Virus record (IMG/VR): IMGVR_UViG_3300042401_002002
From: a virus
Lineage: Duplodnaviria; Heunggongvirae; Uroviricota; Caudoviricetes
DNA length: 64,000 nucleotides
Direction: 5' to 3' (one strand)
Shown here piece by piece: positions 9,878 through 64,000 of this stretch. Under the pieces are notes generated by a model. That model did no database searches, had not been told where the DNA came from, and saw only the letters and a program-made list of their open reading frames with translations. Positions within the stretch are counted from its first letter, which is position 1. Every line of letters starts with the position of its first letter. The position numbers were made by a program, and so were the translations under genes.

Positions 9878-10803
9878 TTTACATATTTTTTAACTTCATC
9901 AATTCCTTTATGTCTGTGAATTTCATTTAAATCCAACAAAGTTTTTTTACCATCAATAACACCTTCGTCTTTTAAATGAACATTTACAATATACTCAATA
10001 TTAAACAACTTAAGTTGTTCTTCTATGTCAATTGAGTTATTTTTAGCATCAGGGTCAAGTATTAATATTACCGAACTATTGTTTTCAATCAACCTATTCA
10101 TTAGGTGTGGTGTTAACACTTTACCAGCTAAAGGTATTGTATTTATTGGTATTGTGGTTAAATCCGGATAACCTTCAACTAAATAAACTGGGTGGTTCCA
10201 ATTGATATTAGACTCGTTTAAGATAATCTCTTTTTTCTCCACTTTTGATGCATCGTAAGCAGGTTTAATTTCTTTTCTGAATGAACGTGCTATGAAGAAA
10301 TTTAACTTCTTAAAACGGTTATATGAAGGGAATATGATGCGTCCTTTGTACCAACCTTCTAAACAGAATCCAACATTTAAATATCTTAATGTATTATCTG
10401 TTATTTTTCTGTCATTTATAACATAATTATAAGCTTCTAAATGTTCTATGTTTGTTTTATCCATTTGTGTGAATGGAATAAACTCTTTTGGTAAAGTAAC
10501 ATAAGTGTTTTTCTTTTTCTCAACTGTTTCACCTATGTCAATGAGGTTGTAATCCATGTATGCTTTGTAATCTTCTTTTGAAGCATACTTTTTTAACATA
10601 TAATGAACCTTTCCTCTGTATCCACATTTCCAGCAATTGTAAATGTGTTTGTTTGGTTGTAACGTAATACCTAGGTTATGTTTGCCATCAGGTTCTTCAC
10701 CATTTTCTTCAGCACATCTTGGACAATTAAAATCCAATGTGCTTGCGTTTGCGTGAGTATGTTTAGGTTTACCTAGTGTTCTGATTAGTATGTCTAATAA
10801 CAT
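9874..10803 (-). CDS. DNA primase (Zn finger + TOPRIM)
   Basis: CPRC...CWKCG zinc-binding domain, GRIIFP, YLVEGYPD, LILDPD. Confidence 0.9.
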   Translation of the reverse strand: MLLDILIRTLGKPKHTHANASTLDFNCPRCAEENGEEPDGKHNLGITLQPNKHIYNCWKCGYRGKVHYMLKKYASKEDYKAYMDYNLIDIGETVEKKKNTYVTLPKEFIPFTQMDKTNIEHLEAYNYVINDRKITDNTLRYLNVGFCLEGWYKGRIIFPSYNRFKKLNFFIARSFRKEIKPAYDASKVEKKEIILNESNINWNHPVYLVEGYPDLTTIPINTIPLAGKVLTPHLMNRLIENNSSVILILDPDAKNNSIDIEEQLKLFNIEYIVNVHLKDEGVIDGKKTLLDLNEIHRHKGIDEVKKYVK

Positions 10804-10808
10804 GATTT

Positions 10809-11491
10809 TTATCTTATGTAAATTATTAATTCATTAAAAAAATCTTGTTCTTTGAAGAGTTTTAAATAATACTGGTCGTTTATTAAAACATTTTCAAATG
10901 TATCTGTATGGTCTACTATACCGTTTATTTTAAGTTTCATCTTTTTCTAACTAACATTAAATTTAATAAACCACATTCATTGAAATTGCTATAAATGTAA
11001 TTGGTTGAATATTGTTGAGTAATTTCTTTGTACAACCAATATTCTTTATTGAATTCTCGTCTTGTTATTTCAATTCCAAGTTTCATCTTTTTCTAATAAT
11101 TAACATATCTAATAACATATCACTATTAAGATAAATTTATTTATCATCAAATTTATTTATTTTTTTATATATCCAATATTCGCTATCAAACTGTAATGTC
11201 GGATTTATGTCTGTTATAAGTTTCATCTTTTTCTAATAATTAATATATCCATTAACATATTACGTTCATCGTTTAGTAGATAATTGTTTAATTTATTTAT
11301 TGATTTAAACATCCAATATTCGTTATTGAAAGATAAATTTATTCCAGTTTTTTCAATCCAAAGTTTCATCTTTTTCTAATAGTTAACATATCACATTTAT
11401 GTAAACCTATACGTTTTTCTTGAATAAGTTTATAAATAAGATTATATTTATTGAAAGTTAAATCAATATTTACGTTTATACCAAGTTTCAT
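10809..11491 (-). repeat. MKL micro-ORF array 2 (5 units, one with an internal TAA)
   Basis: 11366-11491 MKLGINVNIDLTFNKYNLIYKLIQEKRIGLHKCDMLTIRKR; 11223-11369 MKLWIEKTGINLSFNNEYWMFKSINKLNNYLLNDERNMLMDILIIRKR; 11083-11226 (TAA at codon 30); 10937-11086 MKLGIEITRREFNKEYWLYKEITQQ...LNLMLVRKR; 10809-10940 MKLKINGIVDHTDTF...NELIIYIR. Confidence 0.85.
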
Positions 11492-15502: not shown

Positions 15503-16099
15503 ATGAATTACCTTCCTTCTAGGAAAGCTAGTCAAGTCCTTGGGTTACACCCAAATACTCTTAGAAAATATGCAGACAACGGAACAATACATACAATTAA
15601 AAACAACGCTGGTCAAAGACTGTATGACGTTCAGTCATACATCAACTTGTCCTTGTCTGTTGATGAATTCGTGTGTTATTGTAGAGTCTCTTCTAAAAAA
15701 CAACAAGATGATTTACAGCGACAAGTCGCTTACATGTCTTCCTTGTACCCTAACGCAACCATTATTCAAGACATCGGTTCAGGTGTCAACTACAAACGAA
15801 AAGGTCTTCAAACCTTACTGGAACGACTTATCAAAGGAGATAAGTTCACACTTGTGGTTGCCCACAAAGACAGACTTGTTAGGTTCGGATTTGAACTCTT
15901 TGAGTTCCTCTTTAACCAAAACAATGGAAAAATCTTGGTTCTCAACATTAACTCAGGAGACCCTCAGACCGAACTCACAAACGACATTCTCAGAATTCTG
16001 TACGATTACTCGTCCAGCGTTCCAAGACTTAGAGAGTACTATAATAAAATCAAGGAAGATTTCCCTGAATATAACAAAGAAACAGAAGAAAAAACTTGA
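15503..16099 (+). CDS. tnpA: IS607 serine transposase
   Basis: MerR-like HTH (LGLHPNTLRKYA), YCRVSSKKQQDDLQRQ, DIGSG, KDRLVRFGFE. Confidence 0.92.
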   Translation: MNYLPSRKASQVLGLHPNTLRKYADNGTIHTIKNNAGQRLYDVQSYINLSLSVDEFVCYCRVSSKKQQDDLQRQVAYMSSLYPNATIIQDIGSGVNYKRKGLQTLLERLIKGDKFTLVVAHKDRLVRFGFELFEFLFNQNNGKILVLNINSGDPQTELTNDILRILYDYSSSVPRLREYYNKIKEDFPEYNKETEEKT

Positions 16100-17177
16100 T
16101 GTTTGGTCTGGCGTTGCCAGATATGTTTACAACAGAACTGTTGATTATATTTCATTAAAAACCGGTTTCGGTGAACCACTTGAAAAATGGAATCTTGTTT
16201 TTAATGAAATTAACAAACAACTACCTGAATGGTGTAACACAACACCATATCAAATTAAAAAGATGGCTTGTAAAGATGCGTTCAAAGCAAGAACATCTTC
16301 TTTAGCTTTGTTGAAAAACAAAAAGATTAAGTTCTTTAAGTTAAACTATAGAACGAAGTTAAATAAAAACAATATGTATATACCAAAAGATGCAGTTAAA
16401 TCTAAAGGAATATACCATACACTGTTAGGTGAAACTAAATTTAAAGAGAATCTTCCAATCATAGAATATGATTGCAGGTTAATAGAAGAACATGGTGAGT
16501 ACTTCTTATGTGTACCATACAAACAAACTATAGCTAAATTCAACAACCAAGAAGTGCTTTCAAAAGCTGTAGCTATAGACCAAGGAGTGAGAAGTTTTAT
16601 AACTTATTACTCAGAGGATTCAGTTGGTAAGATAGGTAATGAAGACCATGTAATACTATTTAATCTTTGCAAACATATTGATGATTTAATATCAAAAACC
16701 AAGTTAAGTAAAGGGTTTAAAAACCGTAAAAAACGTAAGTCTTATAAAAAAGCAATGAATCGTTTAAAAGCAAAGTTACGCAACTTAGTTGATGAATTAC
16801 ACTGGAAGTCAATTAACTTTTTAGTTAATAATTACAATGTAATAATATGTCCTAACTTTAAAGTTAGCAACATGGTATTAGATGATGTTAAACGAAAGAT
16901 AAGTAGCAAAACAGTACGCAACATGTTAAACTTTAGGTTTTATGTTTTCAAGCAACGCTTGAAACTTAAATGTAAAGAGAGAGGTTGTGTATTGATTGAA
17001 ACAAGTGAAGAGTTTACAAGTCAGATAGCAAGTTGGACAGGTGAGAGAGTTAAAGACATAGGTGGTTCAAAAGAGATTAAAAGCGAAGGTGTTGTAGTTG
17101 ATAGAGATTACAACGGAGCTAGAAACATATTTATCAAGTGTATCCAAGAGAACTTGGATACATCAAAGATAAATTAA
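15540..17177 (+). CDS. tnpB: IS607 TnpB (true start uncertain, overlaps tnpA)
   Basis: AIDQGVRSF (RuvC-I), CPNFKVSNM, SEEFTSQ, DRDYNGARNI (RuvC-III). Confidence 0.88.
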   Translation: MGYTQILLENMQTTEQYIQLKTTLVKDCMTFSHTSTCPCLLMNSCVIVESLLKNNKMIYSDKSLTCLPCTLTQPLFKTSVQVSTTNEKVFKPYWNDLSKEISSHLWLPTKTDLLGSDLNSLSSSLTKTMEKSWFSTLTQETLRPNSQTTFSEFCTITRPAFQDLESTIIKSRKISLNITKKQKKKLDVWSGVARYVYNRTVDYISLKTGFGEPLEKWNLVFNEINKQLPEWCNTTPYQIKKMACKDAFKARTSSLALLKNKKIKFFKLNYRTKLNKNNMYIPKDAVKSKGIYHTLLGETKFKENLPIIEYDCRLIEEHGEYFLCVPYKQTIAKFNNQEVLSKAVAIDQGVRSFITYYSEDSVGKIGNEDHVILFNLCKHIDDLISKTKLSKGFKNRKKRKSYKKAMNRLKAKLRNLVDELHWKSINFLVNNYNVIICPNFKVSNMVLDDVKRKISSKTVRNMLNFRFYVFKQRLKLKCKERGCVLIETSEEFTSQIASWTGERVKDIGGSKEIKSEGVVVDRDYNGARNIFIKCIQENLDTSKIN

Positions 17178-19084: not shown

Positions 19085-20905
19085 TTAGTTTCTAAATTTT
19101 TTAGCGTAAAGTTTCATTAAGTCACTAATTACACTACCGTTATCATTTGCGTTATCAATAAAGTCCTCACCATCAATTACTTTGGAGATAACTTTTTGTT
19201 TTTCAGTTATCATGTCATAAACATACTCATCAATTGAATCTTTTACAATTAAAATCCACGCATTTACTTGGTTTGTTTGTCCTATACGGTCCAATCTACC
19301 TATTGCTTGAGATAATATTGCAGGAACATAGGGGATTGTATTAGCTATAATATTGCTACTTTTTGTTAAAGTTATACCAGCATTACCAGCACCAAAACTA
19401 ATAAACAAATTCTGTAATTCATTACTATCTTGTTGGAATTTATCAACTAATTCTTGTCTAATATAAGAATCAGTTTCACCAATATACAACTCACTATTGT
19501 TTTTGAAGTTTTCGTGAATTTTTTTTAATGGGTTTTTATATTCATCAAACAAAATAACCTTTTCTCCCTCATTGTTTAGTTCGGTAATTAAATCAGTTGA
19601 GTAGTCAAGTTTAATTGATGCTGTATACTGTCTTAATTCATTCATAACACCCATTACACTTACTTGTTTTTGGTTTTCTAAACCTTTGATTGATTTATCT
19701 TCTTGCCAGTCAATCTTAGCAAAACCATTTTCAATATTTTGATAGGTTTTAAGTTGTTCATCACTCATTTCAAGGTAAACTTTTTGAATGTTAAGTGGTG
19801 GAAGGTCTTTAAGGTACTCTGATTTTTTTAATCGAATCATTAAACCTTCTAACTTATCATGCAATTTTTCATAATCAGGTGTTGATATTTGAGACCAACC
19901 ACTAAATGATGAACTGTCGTATTTCATACCACACCACTCAGTAAAAAACTTACTTTTGCTTGTGAATTCTAATGGTGATAATAAATGAAGGTTAACAAAT
20001 AAATCAGTTATTGCATTTTGTTGTGGTGTTGCACTAAGTAAAGAAACTTTATTACCTATAATAGGTCTAATATGTTTAAGTAAATTTTTAACCATATTAG
20101 CTTGTGGATTCTTAATTGTATGCGCTTCATCACATATTAACATATCAAACTGTGTTAATCCGTGTTTAGCGAACCTTTCTTTGAAATTGAATGTACCTGA
20201 TTTAAAATAATCGTAATTACAAATAATATATTTAGATTCTGAAATAGAATTTTTATTATTCTTTTTCATTTTAGCTGGTGTTGTTTCTAATACAAAAGCT
20301 TTTTGTTTTGTAAATTTAGTTACTTCATTAACCCAGTTAAATTTTAAGTTATTTGGTACAACAACCAACACTTTTTTAACTGAATCTTCATACATTTCAC
20401 ATTGTAATAATGTAATTAAGGTTTTACCTAAACCTAAGTCAGCAGCAATTAAAATCTTTTCAACCTCATGCGCAAAAATAGCGGCAGCTACTTGATATCT
20501 ATAAGGTGTAATACCTGGATTTAAATATTTACTATAATCAAATTCAATTTTATCTAAAGCTAATAAATCTTTCTTTCTTTGTATAGCTTTAGTTTGTTTT
20601 GCTAATGAAACTTTTAACTCTTCTTGTTTTTTATTATGTTCAGATAGTTTCTTTTTATATTTTTTAATGAAATTGTCACGTTCACCTTCTTGGTGAAAAT
20701 TGAAAAATATTTTATCATCACCTTTGTAAGAAAGGATAACTTGATATAAAGAAAAAATATCAAGAACCCAACATTTTTTTGCTGAATCCCATTCTCTTTT
20801 TTCTAAAGATTTAATTTTTGTTATTAAATCTACATTATATAAAAATGACAAACTATAACTATCTCTTTTGAATTTAGTTATGTCTACTACTAATTTATTT
20901 TCCAC
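19085..20905 (-). CDS. SNF2-family helicase with N-terminal HARP-like domain
   Basis: DLGLGKT, ICDEAH, LSATP, GITLT, QAIGRLDRIGQ; N-terminal F.YN..LI..IK.L..R.WD...K.W. Confidence 0.9.
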   Translation of the reverse strand: MENKLVVDITKFKRDSYSLSFLYNVDLITKIKSLEKREWDSAKKCWVLDIFSLYQVILSYKGDDKIFFNFHQEGERDNFIKKYKKKLSEHNKKQEELKVSLAKQTKAIQRKKDLLALDKIEFDYSKYLNPGITPYRYQVAAAIFAHEVEKILIAADLGLGKTLITLLQCEMYEDSVKKVLVVVPNNLKFNWVNEVTKFTKQKAFVLETTPAKMKKNNKNSISESKYIICNYDYFKSGTFNFKERFAKHGLTQFDMLICDEAHTIKNPQANMVKNLLKHIRPIIGNKVSLLSATPQQNAITDLFVNLHLLSPLEFTSKSKFFTEWCGMKYDSSSFSGWSQISTPDYEKLHDKLEGLMIRLKKSEYLKDLPPLNIQKVYLEMSDEQLKTYQNIENGFAKIDWQEDKSIKGLENQKQVSVMGVMNELRQYTASIKLDYSTDLITELNNEGEKVILFDEYKNPLKKIHENFKNNSELYIGETDSYIRQELVDKFQQDSNELQNLFISFGAGNAGITLTKSSNIIANTIPYVPAILSQAIGRLDRIGQTNQVNAWILIVKDSIDEYVYDMITEKQKVISKVIDGEDFIDNANDNGSVISDLMKLYAKKFRN

Positions 20906-21056
20906 TGTATAAAAATTTACTGTTTACAATTTAGAAAAAATAAATTAAATAAACAAATAAAATGTTGGTTATTTTGTAAAAATATTTTAATTTTCTTGTT
21001 TATGTTTACTTGAAATTATAACAATTATTTGTAACAGTTACTTGCAACAGTTACTT

Positions 21057-21189
21057 GTAACTAACGTAGCGGTGCTTGTGAAAGTTGGTTTCACTAAAGT
21101 TTAATAGAATCACAATGTTTGTGTTTATCACTAAACTGTCCACGAAGTACAATGACCAACTTTCATAAGCACAGTGTTACCAAATGTTT
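21057..21189 (-). other. attC-like recombination hairpin (distal)
   Basis: Minus strand: TTTGGTAAC-act-GTGCTTATGAAAGTTGGT...ACCAACTTTCACAAGCAC-cgctac-GTTAGTTAC (17/18 arm match), right after a stop codon. Confidence 0.75.
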
Positions 21190-21639
21190 TTATTGTTGTT
21201 GAAAATGTTGTTTATAATATTTAGCTGAATTTTGAAAAGCGGTTAATCCACCTTCATGTTTGTTTTTATATTTATTTACCATGTTGATTATTTCAGCATT
21301 TAATTTAGTCTTGAATGTTTGTCTAGGTACTTTACATTTATAAAAATTAAAACACGCATCATCATATTTCGATAATATTCTTTCTATTTTAGCGTTTAAT
21401 AAGATACTGTCAATTGTATCTTTACTATACAATTCTTCTAATTCAATTTTACTTTTTTCAATATCATCAATTATTTTGTCTAGTTTATTGTTTTTGTTTT
21501 TAAAATATGTTTGAATAAACGGTATTATGATAACTAAAATAGAGATAACAGCAATAATCCAAAATTTAATTTCAGTTTCGTTATTTGATTCTTTTAATTT
21601 AACTATTTCATTAAAAGCTATTCTTAAACTATCTTTCAT
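21190..21639 (-). CDS. cassette gene 2: single-TM membrane protein
   Basis: 149 aa from MKDSLR; TM segment FWIIAVISILVIIIPFI. Confidence 0.65.
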   Translation of the reverse strand: MKDSLRIAFNEIVKLKESNNETEIKFWIIAVISILVIIIPFIQTYFKNKNNKLDKIIDDIEKSKIELEELYSKDTIDSILLNAKIERILSKYDDACFNFYKCKVPRQTFKTKLNAEIINMVNKYKNKHEGGLTAFQNSAKYYKQHFQQQ

Positions 21640-21892
21640 TGTTGTTACGTTTTTCAAGTTCATCTAATAATTTAATAAAATCTGTATTATCATATCCTTC
21701 GTTTATATTATTAAACTTTTCACGAATTTTATTTATAATTTTAATCTTGTCTTTCAGTGTTATATTTTTACCACTATTGACATAAGTTAATTTATTTATT
21801 TTATTGTCTAGGGATTCAACAACAAGTGGGTTATTTTTTTGTTGTAATAAATACTTATAATAATCTTCACTTAAATTTTCAATACTAGCCAT
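21629..21892 (-). CDS. cassette gene 1: small hypothetical protein
   Basis: 87 aa from MASIEN; also in frame with an upstream ATG (21982) inside the hairpin. Confidence 0.6.
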   Translation of the reverse strand: MASIENLSEDYYKYLLQQKNNPLVVESLDNKINKLTYVNSGKNITLKDKIKIINKIREKFNNINEGYDNTDFIKLLDELEKRNNNER

Positions 21893-21921
21893 AATTTTAT
21901 TTATTTCTATTTCTGTCTTTA

Positions 21922-22063
21922 AAATATTTGGTAACATTAAATATTTGCGAAGGTGGGTTATTAAAGATTGAATAAAGTTCATAATTTAGGTTTTAAAGTT
22001 AATTAAGATTGAAGAACAAATATATGAATAAAAACCCACTTTTGCAAATATTTTGTTAGTTAT
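21922..22063 (-). other. attC-like recombination hairpin (proximal) containing a Bacteroidota-type promoter
   Basis: ATAACTAAC-a-AAATATTTGCAAAAGTGGGTT...AACCCACCTTCGCAAATATTT-aat-GTTACCAAA (19/21 arm match); TTTG(22045-48)-20 nt-TATATTTG(22017-24). Confidence 0.75.
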
Positions 22064-22083
22064 AAATAACTGTTATAAGTTTG

Positions 22084-22596
22084 TTATTTTGTAAAAATAA
22101 GTAAATAATTTAAACCTAAATTATTTAATGGGATTACATTAGAATAATTACCTATACATAATACATATTCATAACTAATTTTAAACTTGTATTCTTCTTC
22201 TATATAATATTTTAGTTTCATCTTTTAAATATTATTAAATGTCCTGAATGAGTTTTAATAGTTACAACATTGTCTTTTATTTTATTTTCTATCTTTTTAT
22301 AAATCAAACCTTCACTAAATGTAAAGATAGAACTAGTTAAATTTCCAATTTTTAATTTCATCTTTTAAATAATTTAAGGTCGTTTAATAAATAATTGTAA
22401 GATTTTGTTACATCTTCATCTATAATTAAATTATAAATACCACCTTCGGTAAATTTCCAACTTGATATTAAATCAGATATAAGAAGTTTCATCTTTTAAA
22501 TGTTAATAATTTGTTATTTAATGTATTAGCTGATAAAAGTAATTGAAAAATAACCTTATCAAATATTATGTGGTTACTGGCTCTTTTAAGTTTCAT
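22084..22596 (-). repeat. MKL micro-ORF array 3 (4 units)
   Basis: 22489-22596 MKLKRASNHIIFDKVIFQLLLSANTLNNKLLTFKR; 22358-22492 MKLLISDLISSWKFTEGGIY...NDLKLFKR; 22218-22361 MKLKIGNLTSSIFTFSEGLIY...GHLIIFKR; 22084-22221 MKLKYYIEEEY...NYLLIFTK. Confidence 0.88.
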
Positions 22597-23953: not shown

Positions 23954-25081
23954 TTAAGAAATATTTTTATTTATTTTTATATCTTCTATAGTTTTTAATG
24001 CTGAACCGTAAACTTGATGCATGTCATAATACTTATAATCAGCCAATCTACCACCAAAAATAACATTTTTTAAATTTTTTGTTAGTTCTTTGTAATCTGA
24101 AAATAATTTATTATTTTTTTCATCATTAACAGGGTAATATGGTGTTTTTGTTTTATCAAAAGTATCAGGTGTTTCATAAGTCACATAACTTATGCTGTTA
24201 TCTTTGTTTTTATTGTTTAATTCAAAGTGTTTATGTTCAGTTGTTCTAGTGTAAGGAATGTCTTCAGATGTGTGATTAATAACTGAAACACCCTGGAAAT
24301 CACTAGTATTCATTTTAACTGTATCAAACTTTAGTGTTCTGTATTCTAATTCACCATAACAATAATTGAAATATTCATCTATCTTACCTGTGTAAATTAC
24401 TGTTTCAGCTAAATTATCAAAATATTCTTTATTGTTAAAATAATTAGTATTTAATCTAACTTCAATATTATTTAATAAATTTTTAAATAACTCTGTATAA
24501 CCACCTTTAGGTATACCTTGGTATTTATCAAAAAAATATGAATCATTAAAATTTGTTCTTATGGGAATTCTTTTAATAATGGACATAGGTAGTTCTTTAG
24601 GTTCCCTTCCCCATTGTTTTTTTGTGTAACCATAAATAAATGTTTTATAAATATCTTCACCAACTAAAGATAATACATATTCTTCTAGGTTTTTAGGATT
24701 AGGTATATTAGATTTTACAGATTCTAATTTATCAATAGCTTCTTTTGGTGTTTTAACATTGTACATTTGATATAATGTTAATAAATTAATCGGAAATGAA
24801 TAAAATTTGTCATTATACGATACAATAGGTTTGTAGTTATACGGTAAAAATTCTACATAATTATTTATATCGTCCCATATTTTTTTACTATCAGTATGAA
24901 AAATGTGTGGACCATATTTATGTATATGTATATCATCTTTGGTTTCGGTATAACAGTTACCTGCTATGTGTTCTCTTTGGTCAATAACTAGGCATTTAAA
25001 ACCTAGGTCAGTAAGTTTTCTAGCACATACAGCACCAAACATACCTGACCCAACTATTAGATAATCGTATTGTTTTTTCAT
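23954..25081 (-). CDS. glf: UDP-galactopyranose mutase
   Basis: IVGSGMFG, HKYGPHIFHT, YQGIP, YTRTTEHKHF, PYYP, GGRLADYKYYDMHQ. Confidence 0.95.
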   Translation of the reverse strand: MKKQYDYLIVGSGMFGAVCARKLTDLGFKCLVIDQREHIAGNCYTETKDDIHIHKYGPHIFHTDSKKIWDDINNYVEFLPYNYKPIVSYNDKFYSFPINLLTLYQMYNVKTPKEAIDKLESVKSNIPNPKNLEEYVLSLVGEDIYKTFIYGYTKKQWGREPKELPMSIIKRIPIRTNFNDSYFFDKYQGIPKGGYTELFKNLLNNIEVRLNTNYFNNKEYFDNLAETVIYTGKIDEYFNYCYGELEYRTLKFDTVKMNTSDFQGVSVINHTSEDIPYTRTTEHKHFELNNKNKDNSISYVTYETPDTFDKTKTPYYPVNDEKNNKLFSDYKELTKNLKNVIFGGRLADYKYYDMHQVYGSALKTIEDIKINKNIS

Positions 25082-25734
25082 TCTTTAATAATTAATATAC
25101 CAATACCCATAATGTTGTAATTATTAGGGTGTTCAGTGAATTCTAAATATTTGTAGTTTTGTTTGATTTCATCCCAAAATGTAACAACACCGCCATTTTC
25201 ACATTTTTCTTTTATATACATGTCATTAATATCATGAAACACACAGTATTTTGATTTTATACCAACATTATAAAAATCATTTTTAACATAACTATAGTCA
25301 TGATTACCATCAATAAAAACTAAATCGTAGTTATTATTTTTTATTATTGGGTCATCACTTGTTGTTGTTATTTTATTTACATTAAATGTCTCTATTAATT
25401 CATTATTAATAAAATTAAAAGGGTCTATTGTGGTAGTTTCAATATTTTTATTATTTTTTTCCAATATAGTTTTAATTAAAACATGTGTATAACCATTATA
25501 TGTCCCGATATCTAAATAATTATGTATTATTTTATTAGATAAAAATTTTAAAAGATTATTTATTTGAGACGGTATTTGCCACATACCGTCAGTGTCTTTA
25601 TTTTTTAACATATAAATAATATCATCACCATATAAATCACGTTCATCGTAAGCTAGACCTATTTTATGTATTATTTCTAAATAATCATCTGAATTGTGAT
25701 TATTTATTAAATTTTTTATTTCTATATAATTCAT
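25078..25734 (-). CDS. class I SAM-dependent methyltransferase (Methyltransf_24-like)
   Basis: YLDIGTYNG, DLVFIDGNHDYSYVKND, FHDI. Confidence 0.85.
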   Translation of the reverse strand: MNYIEIKNLINNHNSDDYLEIIHKIGLAYDERDLYGDDIIYMLKNKDTDGMWQIPSQINNLLKFLSNKIIHNYLDIGTYNGYTHVLIKTILEKNNKNIETTTIDPFNFINNELIETFNVNKITTTSDDPIIKNNNYDLVFIDGNHDYSYVKNDFYNVGIKSKYCVFHDINDMYIKEKCENGGVVTFWDEIKQNYKYLEFTEHPNNYNIMGIGILIIKE

Positions 25735-26543
25735 AGTATTTCTCTATATTTGTTAACAAAATTATTATTGTCAACGATTTCTCTTTGTGTAAAAAAAGCG
25801 TAATGTGAAAATATTTTTTCACCAAAAATAATATTAGGTTTATTAATCATTTTTGGTTTATCTACTGATAACCATTGTTCTTCATCAGACCCTACTTCAC
25901 CATTAAAATTACTAAATTCTGAACCTAACCATGAAATAACATTTATTGAAACCCTTTGATATTCAGATAATATCCATTTTTTAAATTTATATTTATCTGT
26001 ATCGTTATTATTTAAATCGGTTATAAATTTTTCATGTACAAATGACGCAAAATTGCCATCTACCCATCCCATTGCTGGTACCCCATGTTCTTGCCAACAA
26101 GCATATTGGTTTAAACCAAAAGGTTGTGTTGGTATAGCACCTATTCTTTGGTGAATGTGTGTGATAACTGAGTTATTTATGATATTACCATATACCAAAA
26201 AATATTCAGGATTGTTAATTCTAAAATTAAATATTTCCTTTATAGCGTCATTTTCAATATAAACTATATCATCATCTAACCTTAAATATGCTGTCTCGTT
26301 GTCAGTATATTCTTTAAAGAACTTGCAAATTGATAAATTACCATTAATTGGTTCATTTATTTTCACTGTTTTAACCCATTCAATTTCAGATTCCAATTTT
26401 AACATATAGTTAATATCTTCTTCGTTTGTTGTATTAACCCATAAATGATATTCATCAAAATCATTTTTTTGTTTTTTTAGATATTCAATTAATATTTCTA
26501 AATATCTTTTTCTACCTGCTGGTGTTACTATTATTTTTTTCAT
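25731..26543 (-). CDS. putative GT-A glycosyltransferase
   Basis: AGRKRYL, YLRLDDDIVYI (DxD). Confidence 0.65.
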   Translation of the reverse strand: MKKIIVTPAGRKRYLEILIEYLKKQKNDFDEYHLWVNTTNEEDINYMLKLESEIEWVKTVKINEPINGNLSICKFFKEYTDNETAYLRLDDDIVYIENDAIKEIFNFRINNPEYFLVYGNIINNSVITHIHQRIGAIPTQPFGLNQYACWQEHGVPAMGWVDGNFASFVHEKFITDLNNNDTDKYKFKKWILSEYQRVSINVISWLGSEFSNFNGEVGSDEEQWLSVDKPKMINKPNIIFGEKIFSHYAFFTQREIVDNNNFVNKYREIL

Positions 26544-26551
26544 TATTTTTA

Positions 26552-27193
26552 TTAAGGTTTATTCGTCCAGTTTGTAAAGCTTTGTCCCCAATTAGCTTTA
26601 TATTTTTTTACACCTATATGTTTATAATTTTCAATTTTTCTAATAACACCATTATAAACGGTGTCAAAATTAAACCATTCAACATTGTCATACAAAAAAT
26701 GTGTACTGTTTGTTGATTTAAAAATAAAACCTTCATAATCAACAGCTTTTATTTTTGTGCAATTTATTAATTTTTTTAATTCATTTTTAAATTTATATAA
26801 AATGTCTGATTTATATAAACCTATATTACATATACCAATATGTTGTTTTGTTAAATATATAGAATCAATATTTTTGTCAATATAATTGATATTTTTTAAT
26901 AATTCTTCTTTAAAATAGCTTTCAACTTCACAAGTATCATGTAAATAAAAATAATAATCACATGGTATAGGGTTTTCAGATAATTCTATTAAAGCTGTGT
27001 AGTCAAAAGAATTATGTGTAATGTAGTTGTATGTTATATTGTGTTCAATTTTAGTATAATTATAATCTGAACCACCAATATAAATAATTATATCATTATT
27101 GTTTATACCTGATATATTTAATGAATTAATCAATAAAGGTAATGTTATATTGTGATATTCTATATAACTGTTAATTATGTATTTTATTTCCAT
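26552..27193 (-). CDS. putative glycosyltransferase-like protein
   Basis: YFYLHDT motif, cluster context. Confidence 0.5.
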   Translation of the reverse strand: MEIKYIINSYIEYHNITLPLLINSLNISGINNNDIIIYIGGSDYNYTKIEHNITYNYITHNSFDYTALIELSENPIPCDYYFYLHDTCEVESYFKEELLKNINYIDKNIDSIYLTKQHIGICNIGLYKSDILYKFKNELKKLINCTKIKAVDYEGFIFKSTNSTHFLYDNVEWFNFDTVYNGVIRKIENYKHIGVKKYKANWGQSFTNWTNKP

Positions 27194-27197
27194 ATTA

Positions 27198-27884
27198 TTA
27201 ATTTATATGTCTTCCCCAACCTATGTGTTCAACATGTTTTTCTGTTAATATTACTGACCTGAATCCTAACTCTTTATATTTTATACCTGCTTCAGCTTCA
27301 AAATCTATGTAAACACCTGAATTAATTATTTTAATGTCAACTAATCCAAAATAAGGTTTTATTAAGTTATAGTCAGATAATCTTCTTAAACCAGGGTTAA
27401 AACTAAAACCGTGCCAGACATTTAAGTAACCCAATGATAAAAGTCTATAATTAACACCGTTAGCATTAAAAATTTCGTCTTCAACTGGGTGACCATTTGT
27501 ATCATGTAAATTTCTTAACCAAACATTCACTATTTTAGTATCATTTTCTAGTATTTCTAAACTTTTTTCAATAAATGATTCTTTAGTAAAGAACCAATCT
27601 TCTTCACAATGAAATATGTATTCAGTATTTATTTTTGAATACATTTTATCTATTGATTTTATTTGTCCTAATTTAAGTTCATTTTCAATCCATTCAACAT
27701 TATATTTTTTATATTTTTCTTTTAAATGATTATTTATACCTAATATATTACTATCTTCTATAATAATATATTTTGTTATGGGGTAAGTGTTTTTTTCAAA
27801 AAAACTGTCCATAGTTTTTTCTAATAAATCAGGTCTCCCACATGATGTTAGTGCAAATGTTATTTGTTTATTTTGAGTTATCAT
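27198..27884 (-). CDS. GT2 glycosyltransferase
   Basis: LTSCGRPDLL, FHCEEDW, FSFNPGLRR, HIGWGR. Confidence 0.8.
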   Translation of the reverse strand: MITQNKQITFALTSCGRPDLLEKTMDSFFEKNTYPITKYIIIEDSNILGINNHLKEKYKKYNVEWIENELKLGQIKSIDKMYSKINTEYIFHCEEDWFFTKESFIEKSLEILENDTKIVNVWLRNLHDTNGHPVEDEIFNANGVNYRLLSLGYLNVWHGFSFNPGLRRLSDYNLIKPYFGLVDIKIINSGVYIDFEAEAGIKYKELGFRSVILTEKHVEHIGWGRHIN

Positions 27885-28729
27885 AATTCTTTTAAAAATT
27901 CTTTAGCAATATTTTCTTCATTACTATATTTTTGTTTATTTGATAATGATGAATGTCCATTACCGTTATTACTAAAATATGCATGTTTTGCATATTTTTT
28001 TAAATCTAAATTTTTAAATGTGTAACCTAAATTAAACATTTCTTTAAACCATTCTGTAGCTGTATCTAATTTACATGACCCAAAAGGTATTACATTTTTA
28101 TTATAAATAACTTCTTTGTTATTTATTTCATTATTTATTAAACAAAACCATTCATTTAATCTACATTCTGGTAATGGAAATGGTTTATTTTTATCAACAA
28201 TATGGTGAGGTCTTGCTGGTTTGTGTATATTAAATGTTTGAATTATTTCACCGTAATTATAATTAAAATCATTGAATTTTTCACTATTACATTTATTTGC
28301 ATAAAACATAGGACAGTTCCAACATTGCCCTATTTCACTAACACCTAAATTGTTTTCAATATTTTCTAGCATGTGTTTTATGATATTGTTTTTATATAAA
28401 ACATCATTATGTGTTATAAATACAAACTTCTTGTCAGACTTTTCAAAACCATATTGGTAACGCATTGATAATCTATATTCTTCATCAATAAAACATCTTT
28501 GTTTGTCAGTTTGGTTAATAAAATTAAAATATTTAGGTTTGTAATGTATTATATTATCAAACTCATTTAATATTAGATTAATATCAAAAACTTCTGGTTG
28601 ATTTGGTTCTTCTTGTAAATAAATTTTATCAATATAGTCACCAGAATGTTTCATTAAAGATTTTAAAGTGACCAAAGTTTGATATGGTTTACCATAAACA
28701 TTTATAATAACATCAACTTTCTGTTCCAT
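27881..28729 (-). CDS. putative GT-A glycosyltransferase
   Basis: DVIINVYGKP, VFITHNDV. Confidence 0.6.
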   Translation of the reverse strand: MEQKVDVIINVYGKPYQTLVTLKSLMKHSGDYIDKIYLQEEPNQPEVFDINLILNEFDNIIHYKPKYFNFINQTDKQRCFIDEEYRLSMRYQYGFEKSDKKFVFITHNDVLYKNNIIKHMLENIENNLGVSEIGQCWNCPMFYANKCNSEKFNDFNYNYGEIIQTFNIHKPARPHHIVDKNKPFPLPECRLNEWFCLINNEINNKEVIYNKNVIPFGSCKLDTATEWFKEMFNLGYTFKNLDLKKYAKHAYFSNNGNGHSSLSNKQKYSNEENIAKEFLKEL

Positions 28730-30270
28730 TACTGAACTCTTAAAATATATTTATTTAGTTTATTTTGGTTTTTTACAACAAAAGGAAATAATCTTTCAAC
28801 CCAATCTTGTTGTAACATTTCTATTTTTTTGTTGTCATCATTTCTAGTTTGTGATTCTAAATGGTAACAAACACTATTCATGTCGCAAATGTTTTCAAAT
28901 CCATGTAAAATAGTTTGTAGACCTAGTTCAACATCTTCAAAACATGAAATATAATTTTCATTAAACATTCCTAGTTTTTGAAAAGTCTTTAATCTAGTCA
29001 TAACAAAGGCGGCAGTGTTACCACAAACTAATTTATCTTTTGTGTTGTAATTATAGTGTGTTTGTATATTATCGTGTGATACTTGTAAGTTATTATTTTT
29101 ATCAATAAACATAATCTGACCACCATGTTGAATGGTACCATCACCAAAATGTAATCTAGCTCCAATGGTACCTAAATTATGTTTGTTGTTAAATTTATTT
29201 ACGAATCTAGTTAAACAATCATTTAACATAATTATGTCATTATTACAAAATAAAACATAATCAGTGTTTTTATTAACATAATTTTTTACAACATCATTAT
29301 TAATTTTAGCAAAGTTGTAATAATTATATTTAATAACTTCAATGTTGTTGTAAGGGTGTTTTTCAATCAGTTTTTCTGTTTCAGATAAACATTCTTCATT
29401 TGAACCTGTATCCGCTATGTAAATTTTAAATTTATCTTTTGGATATAATGTATTATTTATGATGCTATCAACACATTGTGTAATTAAATCAATTTTATCC
29501 TTAGTTGGAATAATAATTGATATAAAACCATGTTTTTTTAGTTTAATATTATCATTTTTTTCATACAAAACTTCTATTTTTTCTGAAATAGGTAGTAGTT
29601 GTTTGTATTTTTCAACAAATTGTTGTCTATTAACTTCAAATTCTTCATTTGGTTGTCCTACTGATTCATGAGTGATATCAAAACTAAAAGTAACACCAAT
29701 TTTAACATCTTCTAAGTAATTTGGTATAGTAAAAGAATGGTCATAAAAATGAAAACCTTTAAATTCTTCATCAAATTTATGTTTGATTAAATTTTTATTA
29801 ACAGCAAAAAACAAACCATCAACTGTGCAAACATTTATTAGTTCGTTATTGTTTGTACTAACTGAATATTTAGAAAGATATTTTTTTGTGTGTTCAGGTG
29901 CATGATAAACCTCACCAACCATTGTTTGGTGCATTCTTTCCCAGAAAACACCACTTTCACTCATGTATGTAGAACCAGCTTTACCTATGATACCGTATTC
30001 AGGGTTTGAATTGAAATCTTTTAAAAGATTAATACCCCAATTTTTAGATAACTTAATATCATTGTGACAAAAAATAACTAAATCAGTTTTTGATTCCTCT
30101 AAACCTTTGTTGTATAATTCAGATAAAGAATATTGATTATAATTCTCGTAACATATAATATCTAAACCATTATTAAGTAAACCTGACGATAATCTTAAGT
30201 GATTAATAAAATTTTGGTTATATTCTGAATTTTTGTGTGAAGAAAAAACTACTGTCAATTTTGAAAACAT
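28729..30270 (-). CDS. two-domain GT2 glycosyltransferase
   Basis: N domain FCHNDI/FHFYD; C domain SIIIPTKD, FCNND, FEDVE, HLESQTR. Confidence 0.85.
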   Translation of the reverse strand: MFSKLTVVFSSHKNSEYNQNFINHLRLSSGLLNNGLDIICYENYNQYSLSELYNKGLEESKTDLVIFCHNDIKLSKNWGINLLKDFNSNPEYGIIGKAGSTYMSESGVFWERMHQTMVGEVYHAPEHTKKYLSKYSVSTNNNELINVCTVDGLFFAVNKNLIKHKFDEEFKGFHFYDHSFTIPNYLEDVKIGVTFSFDITHESVGQPNEEFEVNRQQFVEKYKQLLPISEKIEVLYEKNDNIKLKKHGFISIIIPTKDKIDLITQCVDSIINNTLYPKDKFKIYIADTGSNEECLSETEKLIEKHPYNNIEVIKYNYYNFAKINNDVVKNYVNKNTDYVLFCNNDIIMLNDCLTRFVNKFNNKHNLGTIGARLHFGDGTIQHGGQIMFIDKNNNLQVSHDNIQTHYNYNTKDKLVCGNTAAFVMTRLKTFQKLGMFNENYISCFEDVELGLQTILHGFENICDMNSVCYHLESQTRNDDNKKIEMLQQDWVERLFPFVVKNQNKLNKYILRVQ

Positions 30271-62617: not shown

Positions 62618-62866
62618 ATGAAACCTAACTTAACAAATTCTGAACTATTAAACATTACCGAAAATAAAAGATTAGATATTCTTTTTACTGAAAGAATTTA
62701 CACAGATTATTATCCTATAATTACTGAAAATAACAAACAAAAGAAATTTGGTAAAATCTGTGATGTTAATCTAAACTTCAATATCCAAGATAACCAAACC
62801 GAAACTATACAAAATGTTCTTATTGAAAAATACGGACTAATTGATAAATTTTATTTCATTAAATAA
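62618..62866 (+). CDS. hypothetical protein
   Basis: 82 aa. Confidence 0.5.
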   Translation: MKPNLTNSELLNITENKRLDILFTERIYTDYYPIITENNKQKKFGKICDVNLNFNIQDNQTETIQNVLIEKYGLIDKFYFIK

Positions 62867-62868
62867 CC

Positions 62869-63096
62869 ATGCAAACACTACTACAACATAACCTAATTAT
62901 AGGTTTATTAATCTTATCATCTGTACTATCAAGTTTCATTGATATAATTTTAGGGTTTTCTGTCAGAAGATTAATCGTGAAATATAAATTAAAAACATTT
63001 ATTGAAATATTTTCTACAGCTTTTGCTACTACTAGAAATATCATCTTAATAGGTTTTGTTATTTTATTATTAATTGGAAAAATAAATATTATTTAA
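62869..63096 (+). CDS. small 2-TM membrane protein
   Basis: Two hydrophobic helices. Confidence 0.55.
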   Translation: MQTLLQHNLIIGLLILSSVLSSFIDIILGFSVRRLIVKYKLKTFIEIFSTAFATTRNIILIGFVILLLIGKINII

Positions 63097-63203
63097 AAAT
63101 AATTAAGTTTTTATTTGGTTTATTCATTTTTATTTCTTATTTTACAGACAGTTCAAAATAAGGACTTTTTAACCTAAAATATATTTTTCACTTTTAATTT
63201 TTA

Positions 63204-64000
63204 ATGGAAAACCAAAATACAAACATTGATGTTCAGGATACTATCAATAACATTGCACTACCACCTAAAGTAGACAAAGGTGCGTTATCTAGACGTGGCA
63301 GAAAAAAACAATTAAATCACTATTGGACTGAAGACACTGAAAAGGCTGTAATAGCTTATATCGAAACTACTGAAAGAGGTTTAAGAAATGAAATATACAC
63401 AAAATATTTACACGAGACAATTAATAAATTAATTGATGGGTTGATTCAAAAATATGCATCAGGAAATAAACGACACATAGGACATTGCGGTTTAGAAGAA
63501 TTAAGAGCCAGAATGTATCTACAAGTATTTAATTCAATTGAAGGTTTCGATAAAAATTTAGTAGGTAAAAACGGTACACCTGTTAGAGCTTATTCATATT
63601 TAGGTACAATAGCAAATAACTTTTTAAAAAACCACTCAAAAACAAGTTATAAATTAGAATCAAAAAATGACAACATTGATTCATATAATACATCTTACCT
63701 AGATGAACAAATTAAAGAGGAACATTACAAAACCAGAGACCCTGACGAAGTAGATGCTATTGATTTAATTATCGAACATACCATAGATGCTTTAAAAAAA
63801 GAAGTTAAATCAAATATTACATTAAAAGAAATTGACATAAAAATAGCGAATGCAATTATTGTTATTCTTGAAAATTTTGAATACTACTTTACAGAACCAA
63901 CTGAAAATTCAGAACCACTAGAATATACTAAACGTGGTAAGATTAAAAAACCTAAATTTACTAACTCTTATACAAAAAATAAAGTTTTCTTTATCCTTAA
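63204..64000 (+). CDS. phage sigma factor (gp55-like late sigma), 3'-truncated by the window
   Basis: Open to the window end; YWTEDTEKAVIAY...RNEIY...FD...RAYSYLGTIANNFL resembles sigma region 2. Confidence 0.65.
   Translation, partial: MENQNTNIDVQDTINNIALPPKVDKGALSRRGRKKQLNHYWTEDTEKAVIAYIETTERGLRNEIYTKYLHETINKLIDGLIQKYASGNKRHIGHCGLEELRARMYLQVFNSIEGFDKNLVGKNGTPVRAYSYLGTIANNFLKNHSKTSYKLESKNDNIDSYNTSYLDEQIKEEHYKTRDPDEVDAIDLIIEHTIDALKKEVKSNITLKEIDIKIANAIIVILENFEYYFTEPTENSEPLEYTKRGKIKKPKFTNSYTKNKVFFIL

Follow-up and report, generated by a model that had tools for sequence, protein, structure and literature searches.

Two hairpins with mutually pairing flanks as possible ends of an accessory-gene cassette in AT-rich, T4-related jumbo phages

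What brought two large hairpins, with flanking sequences that match each other crosswise, to either side of two orphan genes in a tailed phage? The question is raised by a 64,000-nt stretch of DNA (the window; IMG/VR record IMGVR_UViG_3300042401_002002, Caudoviricetes), in which the two genes, A and B, lie between a row of micro-open reading frames (micro-ORFs) and a helicase gene. The original prediction, made from the letters alone, was that of an integron-like two-gene cassette that had recombined as a circle of ~870 bp into a pre-existing attC-like site. We read the region instead as one self-contained accessory-gene cassette of ~1.1 kb, the representative of a previously undescribed family in AT-rich, T4-related jumbo phages, and put the probability of this reading at about 0.5. 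Coordinates and reading direction refer throughout to the minus strand, on which all genes of the region lie (Table 1).

Hairpins, crosswise flanks and the inserted unit

Both hairpins exist as predicted. Hairpin 1 has 25-nt arms (22053-22029 and 21963-21939) that are 88% complementary, and hairpin 2 has 18-nt arms (21172-21155 and 21089-21072) that are 94% complementary, with 65 nt between the arms in each case. The arms of the two hairpins resemble each other; their loops showed no significant similarity in either orientation. Both hairpins fold better than shuffled sequence, with DNA z-scores of -2.3 to -5.0 that are stronger on the plus strand, and hairpin and profile searches found no further hairpin of this kind elsewhere in the window. 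The hairpin 2 unit begins directly after the stop codon of gene B (TAA at 21192-21190), as had been described, and the reported offset of the arms by unpaired bases was seen as internal loops between the TAAC/GTTA cores and the arms (1x3 in hairpin 1, 3x6 in hairpin 2). Logan assemblies of an identical strain from three sequencing runs (L002, L004 and L005) all break in the right arm of hairpin 1 (21941-21962), where two contigs end and one starts; heterogeneity at the site, extra module copies in the samples or an assembly problem at the hairpin could each be the cause.

The cores are mismatched within each hairpin and matched crosswise, again in agreement with the original prediction. The outer cores, ATAACTAAC (22063-22055) and GTTAGTTAC (21065-21057), pair at 8/9 positions, with an extended match of 22/26, and the inner cores, GTTACCAAATATTT (21935-21922) and AAACATTTGGTAAC (21189-21176), pair at 13/14. 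The outer flanks are referred to here as X and X', the inner ones as Y' and Y. When 30-nt flanks were compared against 20,000 random 30-mer pairs drawn from the window, hairpin 1 and hairpin 2 matched with P = 5e-5 for the outer and P = 1.5e-4 for the inner flanks, versus a chance-level P = 0.74 for the two flanks of each hairpin against each other. It might be supposed that nothing special is present, and that two unrelated terminator or operator hairpins have flanks that match by chance in AT-rich DNA. Short matches are indeed frequent at 24% G+C, and the number of isolated cores across the window is that expected by chance; yet the P values above are position-specific, and the recurrence of the same architecture, with compensatory changes, on independent contigs (see below) refutes this explanation, which we regard as scarcely credible.

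Relatives of the phage, found through the neighbouring helicase, carry helicases at 89, 66, 63, 49 and 42% identity. In the closest of these (contig L006, 89%), a gene of 244 amino acids (aa) and the first and last micro-ORFs are orthologous to those of the window. Its last micro-ORF (...YTK, stop) is followed by 59 nt up to the helicase, compared with 58 nt after the right-hand repeat in the window, and this stretch lacks the hairpins and both genes and has the window's duplicated sequence once only. A small gene stands directly before the helicase in L007, L008-L010, L201 and L202, with the cassette absent, and the loci of these relatives yielded no homologue of either gene or of either hairpin. 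In the window, a direct repeat surrounds the unit, exact over 17 nt (22099-22083 and 20984-20968) and 21/22 over 22 nt, and its 15-mer has only these two occurrences in the window. As five relatives have the flanking genes and lack the hairpins and both genes, the whole inserted unit of 1115 bp, with both hairpins inside, represents the insertion; the most economical reading is that it would have arisen as a single event in the lineage of this phage. With the gain at this site the target was duplicated (21/22 nt), consistent with recombination through a short homologous patch.

A second case of presence and absence comes from L198, the flanks of which are orthologous to window positions 62666-63356, with up to 78% aa identity. 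Between these flanks L198 has a two-gene cassette of the family described below, where the window reads TAAAAATAA (63094-63102) and has no hairpin. In L199 a related cassette shares the right flank of L198 and has a different left neighbour. Cassettes are thus found in several contexts, arriving and disappearing as complete units. Sequence comparison thus shows both hairpins to be parts of a cassette that is gained or lost whole, between genes and next to a stop codon. In L186 (oriented, 930-960), a 14-nt tandem duplication includes the start codon of the next gene after the cassette and is perhaps a junction footprint of the kind seen in the window's repeat.

The empty sites bear directly on the proposal that hairpin 1 was a landing pad. 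In that model a single attC-like site, X-hairpin 1-X', received a circle carrying Y-hairpin 2-Y' through the action of a tyrosine recombinase (host or distant) at G|TT, so that hairpin 1 must have been in place before the cassette arrived. The sites without a hairpin in L006, L007, L008 and at window 63094-63102 contradict the core of this model. The absence of empty alleles, together with the occurrence of the two genes in relatives without the hairpins, was to count against the original prediction; empty alleles were found, and the loci of the relatives lack homologues of both genes, but none of the empty alleles keeps a hairpin site. An integrated two-gene cassette is borne out as a discrete inserted unit with empty alleles, but the unit is 1115 bp long and includes both hairpins.

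A family of cassettes with common ends

Since the arms of the two hairpins are alike, a degenerate arm pattern was used to scan sequence collections. It produced 15 matches in the metagenome collection, 10 of which were related AT-rich contigs of marine and freshwater origin, and a search with the leader peptide (see below) added one further family contig. Including the window, the family comprises 12 5' modules, 8 3' modules and 8 complete cassettes. The arm pattern had 0 matches in IMG/VR and 7 in GTDB genomes, none of them related. Matches to a pattern of core plus core (IMG/VR, 36; GTDB genomes, at least 120) were all due to chance, and a profile of the two ends recovered no true copy among them; the 9 matches to an X-core pattern were likewise chance, and the Y' string had no match in IMG/VR. 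Profile searches found no further module copy in the window or its relatives, a tRNA search returned nothing, and Rfam 15 gave no match to the window and four family loci at the gathering score or at E values up to 5.

All members share the layout X-hairpin 1-Y'-leader-cargo-Y-hairpin 2-X', in which the hairpin 1 loop holds an ATG and Y follows immediately on the final stop codon of the cargo. The 5' module (150-215 nt, with the start codon) is conserved in every cassette, and ~80 conserved nt follow hairpin 1 on the cargo side. The cargo itself is unrelated between cassettes and consists of one or two genes with products of 54 to 290 aa, several of which have predicted membrane helices. One cargo protein, P0043 (200 aa, from a JGI metagenome), has a SocA/Panacea antitoxin-type domain (Pfam, E = 2.4e-17) and starts at its own methionine after the common 45-codon leader. 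The Panacea-domain cargo and the small membrane proteins suggest that the cassettes may carry defence or counter-defence functions. The leader frame is open from the hairpin 1 loop into every cargo, through at least five kinds of junction. Among 1.8 billion representative proteins, profile searches found only about ten that have the leader, indicating that the family is rare in present data.

Within the window, the leader of gene A, MNFIQSLITHLRKYLML, is homologous to those of the family members, and an internal methionine at 21893 is the likely start of the cargo proper. The gene B protein has one predicted transmembrane helix and a helical tail, and its sole match among 5.8 billion proteins was itself. 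It had a weak PHROG match; its nearest cluster, 'abortive infection' (score 0.88), serves as a lead only, and atlas look-ups of the gene A and gene B proteins gave no reliable family.

At the 3' end, hairpin 2 occurs with two unrelated arm sequences at the same place (types A and B), both structured inside; the type A hairpin of the window has homologues in L186 and L199, loop included. Long terminal inverted repeats of a transposon were considered as a full explanation and rejected, as the type B hairpin 2 is unrelated to hairpin 1 and the flanks still pair. Ahead of a complete cassette in L196, part of the 5' module (promoter, X, left arm and half of the loop) is duplicated in tandem over 118 bp (oriented, about 60-200).

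Recombinases were sought by scanning 40 of the window's 58 ORFs of at least 100 aa against Pfam. The sole recombinase in the scanned ORFs was the serine recombinase (MerR-resolvase TnpA, 15503-16099) of an IS607 element (15503-17177) with an overlapping TnpB, and the ends of this element have nothing in common with the cassette. Neither a tyrosine recombinase or IntI nor a HUH enzyme or Y1 transposase was found in these ORFs, and the original statement that no integrase is present holds for tyrosine recombinases. A serine recombinase gene 5 kb away would suit an invertible, phase-variable module, in which Y'/Y or X/X' are invertase targets and the cargo is flipped relative to the leader. Such a module would also have inverted repeats of 16-26 nt around the cargo, as seen here, and could be behind the breaks of the three Logan assemblies inside hairpin 1. 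The cargo nevertheless has the same orientation in 8/8 complete cassettes, including L193, in which the leader follows Y' in the normal way, and the recombinase belongs to an IS607, as the TnpA encoded next to tnpB; inversion is, in our view, very improbable.

Pairing across the cassette and the choice of strand

The alignment of hairpin 1 contains 27 pairs with 94% of cells paired, and six pairs changed on both sides, compared with 2.4 in shuffled alignments. Its covariation score was reached by 0/500 shuffles, and sliding the partner columns reduced pairing to ~50%. Y' and Y are complementary in three versions, 15/16 in each, with cores of TTACCAAAT in the window, TGTGTGTAAG in most members and GGTGGTAAG in L199; L198 and L199, which are otherwise 93% identical, show a matched 3-nt co-change in Y' and Y. 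X and X' read TAACTAAC in the window versus AATAAATAAC in the others, with complementarity kept. The four helices are kept by compensatory change, and the crosswise complementarity of Y':Y and X:X' is under selection.

The pairing of X to X' and of Y' to Y gives one strand of the entire cassette the form of a four-way junction. When each 5' module was joined to its own 3' module by a short linker and folded, the junction of X:X', hairpin 1, Y':Y and hairpin 2 was obtained in 7/7 of these mini-constructs. All four helices end at the junction in AAC/GTT, such that local hairpin closure and long-range pairing are alternatives over 4-5 bp. What had been taken for the footprint of a core exchange at G|TT is better read as the four helices of one fold.

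The fold is not equally stable on the two strands. Single-strand folding, which had been suggested as a check, gave an antisense strand (opposite the genes) more stable than the coding strand by 22-28 kcal/mol with RNA parameters and by 5-7.5 kcal/mol with DNA parameters in 7/7 cassettes; as a control, 60 random segments of the same coding strand differed by +0.8 on average (standard deviation 7.8). In hairpin 1, G.U cells number 26 on the antisense versus 1 on the sense strand, which has A.C mismatches at those positions, and the single mismatch in Y':Y and in each hairpin 2 type follows the same strand pattern. From this bias, selection appears to act either on the bottom-strand fold or against a tight fold of the message.

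We tentatively favour the first possibility: the fold may well act in bottom-strand single-stranded DNA, keeping both ends of the cassette in one place as the substrate on which insertion and excision take place. This would be the work either of a strand-specific enzyme with its gene elsewhere or of the recombination system of the phage itself, which is very active, and the A.C mismatches on the mRNA strand would leave the same helices weak enough for translation. If the fold is indeed a recombination substrate, it would represent a new route of gene mobility. A stronger version, which we consider unlikely, makes the cassettes a new class of mobile element of lytic phages, in which the bottom strand forms the four-way junction with AAC/GTT at its centre and a strand-specific recombinase or junction-resolving enzyme inserts and excises single-stranded DNA; this would amount to integron-like logic without a platform, both partner sites being carried in the cassette.

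Several points weigh against a self-contained cassette that works through its DNA fold. No candidate enzyme was identified in the scanned ORFs of the window beyond the IS607 serine recombinase. Helices rich in G.T are met more typically in RNA than in single-stranded DNA with a function. The promoter just upstream of X in three contigs means that a sense transcript would start at X, which favours a role in RNA, and the open leader frame points to translation through the helices. Flanking direct repeats occur only at the window copy (22 nt) and at L198 (9 nt), the others having none above chance, and were rejected as a hallmark of the family. Furthermore, the family is small and was gathered with a pattern derived from the window locus, and the data cover only 64 kb of a 265-308-kb genome (a 265-kb contig; 308 kb in another assembly).

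The fold could alternatively belong to an RNA device combined with ordinary mobility. The 5' module would then be a promoter and leader, the 3' module a terminator-like stabiliser, and the pairing of 5' and 3' ends would control stability or translation, with the fold-back of hok mRNA as a precedent for a closed transcript. As the modules are shared, general phage recombination could swap the cargo, as with the motifs of promoter-early stem-loop (PeSL) cassettes. Consistent with such a device, X in L189, L193 and L196 is immediately preceded by a Bacteroidota-type promoter consensus, TTTG-N20-TACATTTG, and a similar promoter-like motif, TTTG-N20-TATATTTG, is found inside hairpin 1 of the window (22048-22017). 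The start codon lies in the hairpin 1 loop with its frame open into all cargos, a U-rich stretch comes after type B hairpin 2, and the four-way junction is also formed by sense RNA, with energies of -73 to -93 kcal/mol. PeSL cassettes are themselves a precedent in T4-type phages (PMC2839356), and relatives of the present phage have a T4-type portal and gp25. The sense strand, however, has its A.C mismatches exactly where the antisense strand has G.U pairs and pays for the fold in energy, as given above, and no synonymous C-to-T changes that would yield sense-strand G.U pairs were seen. Transcripts ending at the U-rich stretch after hairpin 2 would miss most of X'. The leader shows a flat pattern over its codon positions (16, 17 and 20 variable sites of 40 each), which gives no clear sign that the leader peptide itself matters. 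We hold the RNA device to be possible but rather doubtful; it would imply an unusual 5'-3' closure of phage messages.

Known systems, layout and genomic context

As Juhala and co-workers are said to have described it in 2000, a moron is an extra transcription unit between two conserved genes of tailed phages. The unit in the window resembles one in being extra, in having what looks like its own promoter and a hairpin after the last gene, and in lying between genes that are adjacent in relatives. To our knowledge, morons are not defined by conserved, mutually pairing ends common to unrelated cargos, whereas such ends are shared by unrelated cargos here. Single-strand transposons of the IS200/IS605 type and their non-autonomous derivatives have subterminal hairpins and strand-specific structure. 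The cassettes are similar to these in their hairpins at both ends, strand specificity, variable cargo and, mostly, lack of a classical target duplication. They differ in that no Y1 transposase is among the scanned ORFs, in their far longer hairpins, and in ends that are unlike each other and pair mutually; in addition, a 21/22-nt repeat flanks the window copy, and no relation exists between hairpin 1 and the type B hairpin 2.

A further comparison is with the PeSL cassettes of T4-type phages (Arbiol et al. 2010, PMC2839356; Comeau et al. 2014, PMC4122927), for which the original authors themselves drew the parallel with integrons. Both systems consist of small orphan genes in variable regions of T4-related phages, bracketed by a conserved promoter and stem-loop, with presence differing between close relatives and no dedicated recombinase known. 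In PeSL cassettes, copies of one short motif lie in direct orientation on either side and recur many times in the genome, and recombination between them yields mini-circles. Here, in contrast, there are two different end modules of ~150 nt, flanks that pair across the whole cassette in a set of four covarying helices and a strand-biased fold, with only one cassette in 64 kb and no repeated motif copies.

Clusters of attC sites occur in lytic phages (Qi et al. 2023, PMC9892861), and the likeness to attC extends to an imperfect hairpin of ~130-140 nt that lies between ...AAC and GTT... immediately 3' of the cargo, with an internal loop between core and arms, a better fold on the strand opposite the genes, and variable cargo. 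Of the attC hallmarks originally invoked, AAC/GTT, which surrounds both hairpins in all members, and the better fold of the bottom strand were confirmed; the 7-mers at the hairpins reach 6/7 at best of the attC consensus RYYYAAC ... GTTRRRY. The cassettes depart from attC in the large hairpin module at the 5' end of each of them, with its conserved stretch of ~80 nt on what would be the cassette side, whereas the 5' end of an integron cassette gives only a few core bases. Moreover, none of the 12 5' modules is a solo X-hairpin-X' site, empty sites keep no recombination site, and no platform site, array or attI was seen within the sequence read, nor an IntI in the 40 scanned ORFs. The complementary flanks span 16-26 nt, compared with 6-7 nt of an R box, and the loops are long (65 nt). 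Together with the real crosswise complementarity and the position of hairpin 2 after a stop codon, the shared features lend the recombined attC-like site some support, but in view of these differences and of the empty sites we judge it improbable.

In its behaviour the unit is a moron or a PeSL-like shuffling unit, its recognition structures are attC-like, and it is no integron cassette; the family resembles attC sites and PeSL cassettes and is a member of neither group. What had been observed in the letters proved correct in each detail checked, and the interpretation placed on it is partly supported, being right in spirit (a portable cassette, strand-specific hairpins and AAC/GTT cores) and wrong in mechanism. 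The acquisition and exchange of orphan genes in lytic phages are poorly understood; integrons account for cassette traffic in bacteria, and PeSL motifs for part of it in T4-type coliphages. The family offers a searchable structure (two end modules around interchangeable cargo, four covarying helices and a strand bias), and whether the fold acts in DNA or in RNA, profiles of the modules can help to find phage accessory genes in metagenomes.

From 5' to 3', the region runs through the micro-ORF end, X, hairpin 1, Y', genes A and B, Y, hairpin 2, X', a short tail, the right repeat and the helicase promoter region (Table 1). The motif formed by X' and the 13-mers was not above chance elsewhere in the window, and X was rejected as a general phage operator as it showed no enrichment there. 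Upstream of the unit, the window has three tandem paralogous micro-ORFs of 44-47 aa (22084-22492) with stop/start overlaps of ATGA; L006 has only two, and the middle copy in the window is extra.

Table 1. Features of the cassette region and of the second, empty site, with positions in the window.
Feature	Position	Strand	Description
Left direct repeat	22079..22106	-	Natural 3' end of last micro-ORF; exact 17-mer 22099-22083
Last micro-ORF, 45 aa	stop 22086-22084	-	Orthologous to L006 6851-6988
X, outer left flank, ends in ATAACTAAC	22055..22080	-	Complementary to X' (22/26 and 20/23)
Hairpin 1 (5' module)	21939..22053	-	25-nt arms, 65-nt loop with ATG at 21982
Y', inner flank of hairpin 1	21921..21936	-	Overlaps leader-frame codons 16-21; complementary to Y
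Gene A, 117 aa from leader ATG	21629..21982	-	Orphan protein; leader MNFIQSLITHLRKYLML
Gene B, 157 aa (149 aa from 21639)	21190..21663	-	Orphan protein
Y	21175..21190	-	Starts at gene B stop codon; complementary to Y'
Hairpin 2 (3' module, type A)	21072..21172	-	18-nt arms, structured 65-nt loop
X' (GTTAGTTAC...) and three tandem 13-mers (AAGTAACTGTTRC-like)	21013..21065	-	X' complementary to X
Right direct repeat	20964..20991	-	Copy of the micro-ORF's last five codons and stop; exact 17-mer 20984-20968
SNF2-type helicase, right-hand neighbour	19085..20905	-	Anchor used to find relatives
Empty site TAAAAATAA at stop codon of upstream gene	63094..63102	+	Related contig L198 has a cassette here

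The window has a G+C content of 23-29% and encodes a DnaB-type helicase, PhoH, a baseplate protein and glycosyltransferases in addition to the IS607 element. In BLAST searches run in both near and distant modes, none of 50,697 phage records matched the region, and neither the GenBank phage set nor IMG/VR contained a close relative, the helicase's match in IMG/VR reaching only 27%. In the distant relatives L201 (2740-6803) and L202 (1-10053), the SNF2-type helicase stands beside a T4-type portal and gp25, ribonucleotide reductase and a family B DNA polymerase, neighbours that place the lineage within the T4 superfamily. Further from the cassette, window positions 23954-30270 hold an operon of UDP-galactopyranose mutase, a methyltransferase and several glycosyltransferases, and L006-L008 have different sugar-modifying genes in its place. 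At the position corresponding to the window's IS607 element, L006 has an intact gene of 375 aa (10016-11143) with matches to Acb1/2H-phosphoesterase and ART-PolyVal.

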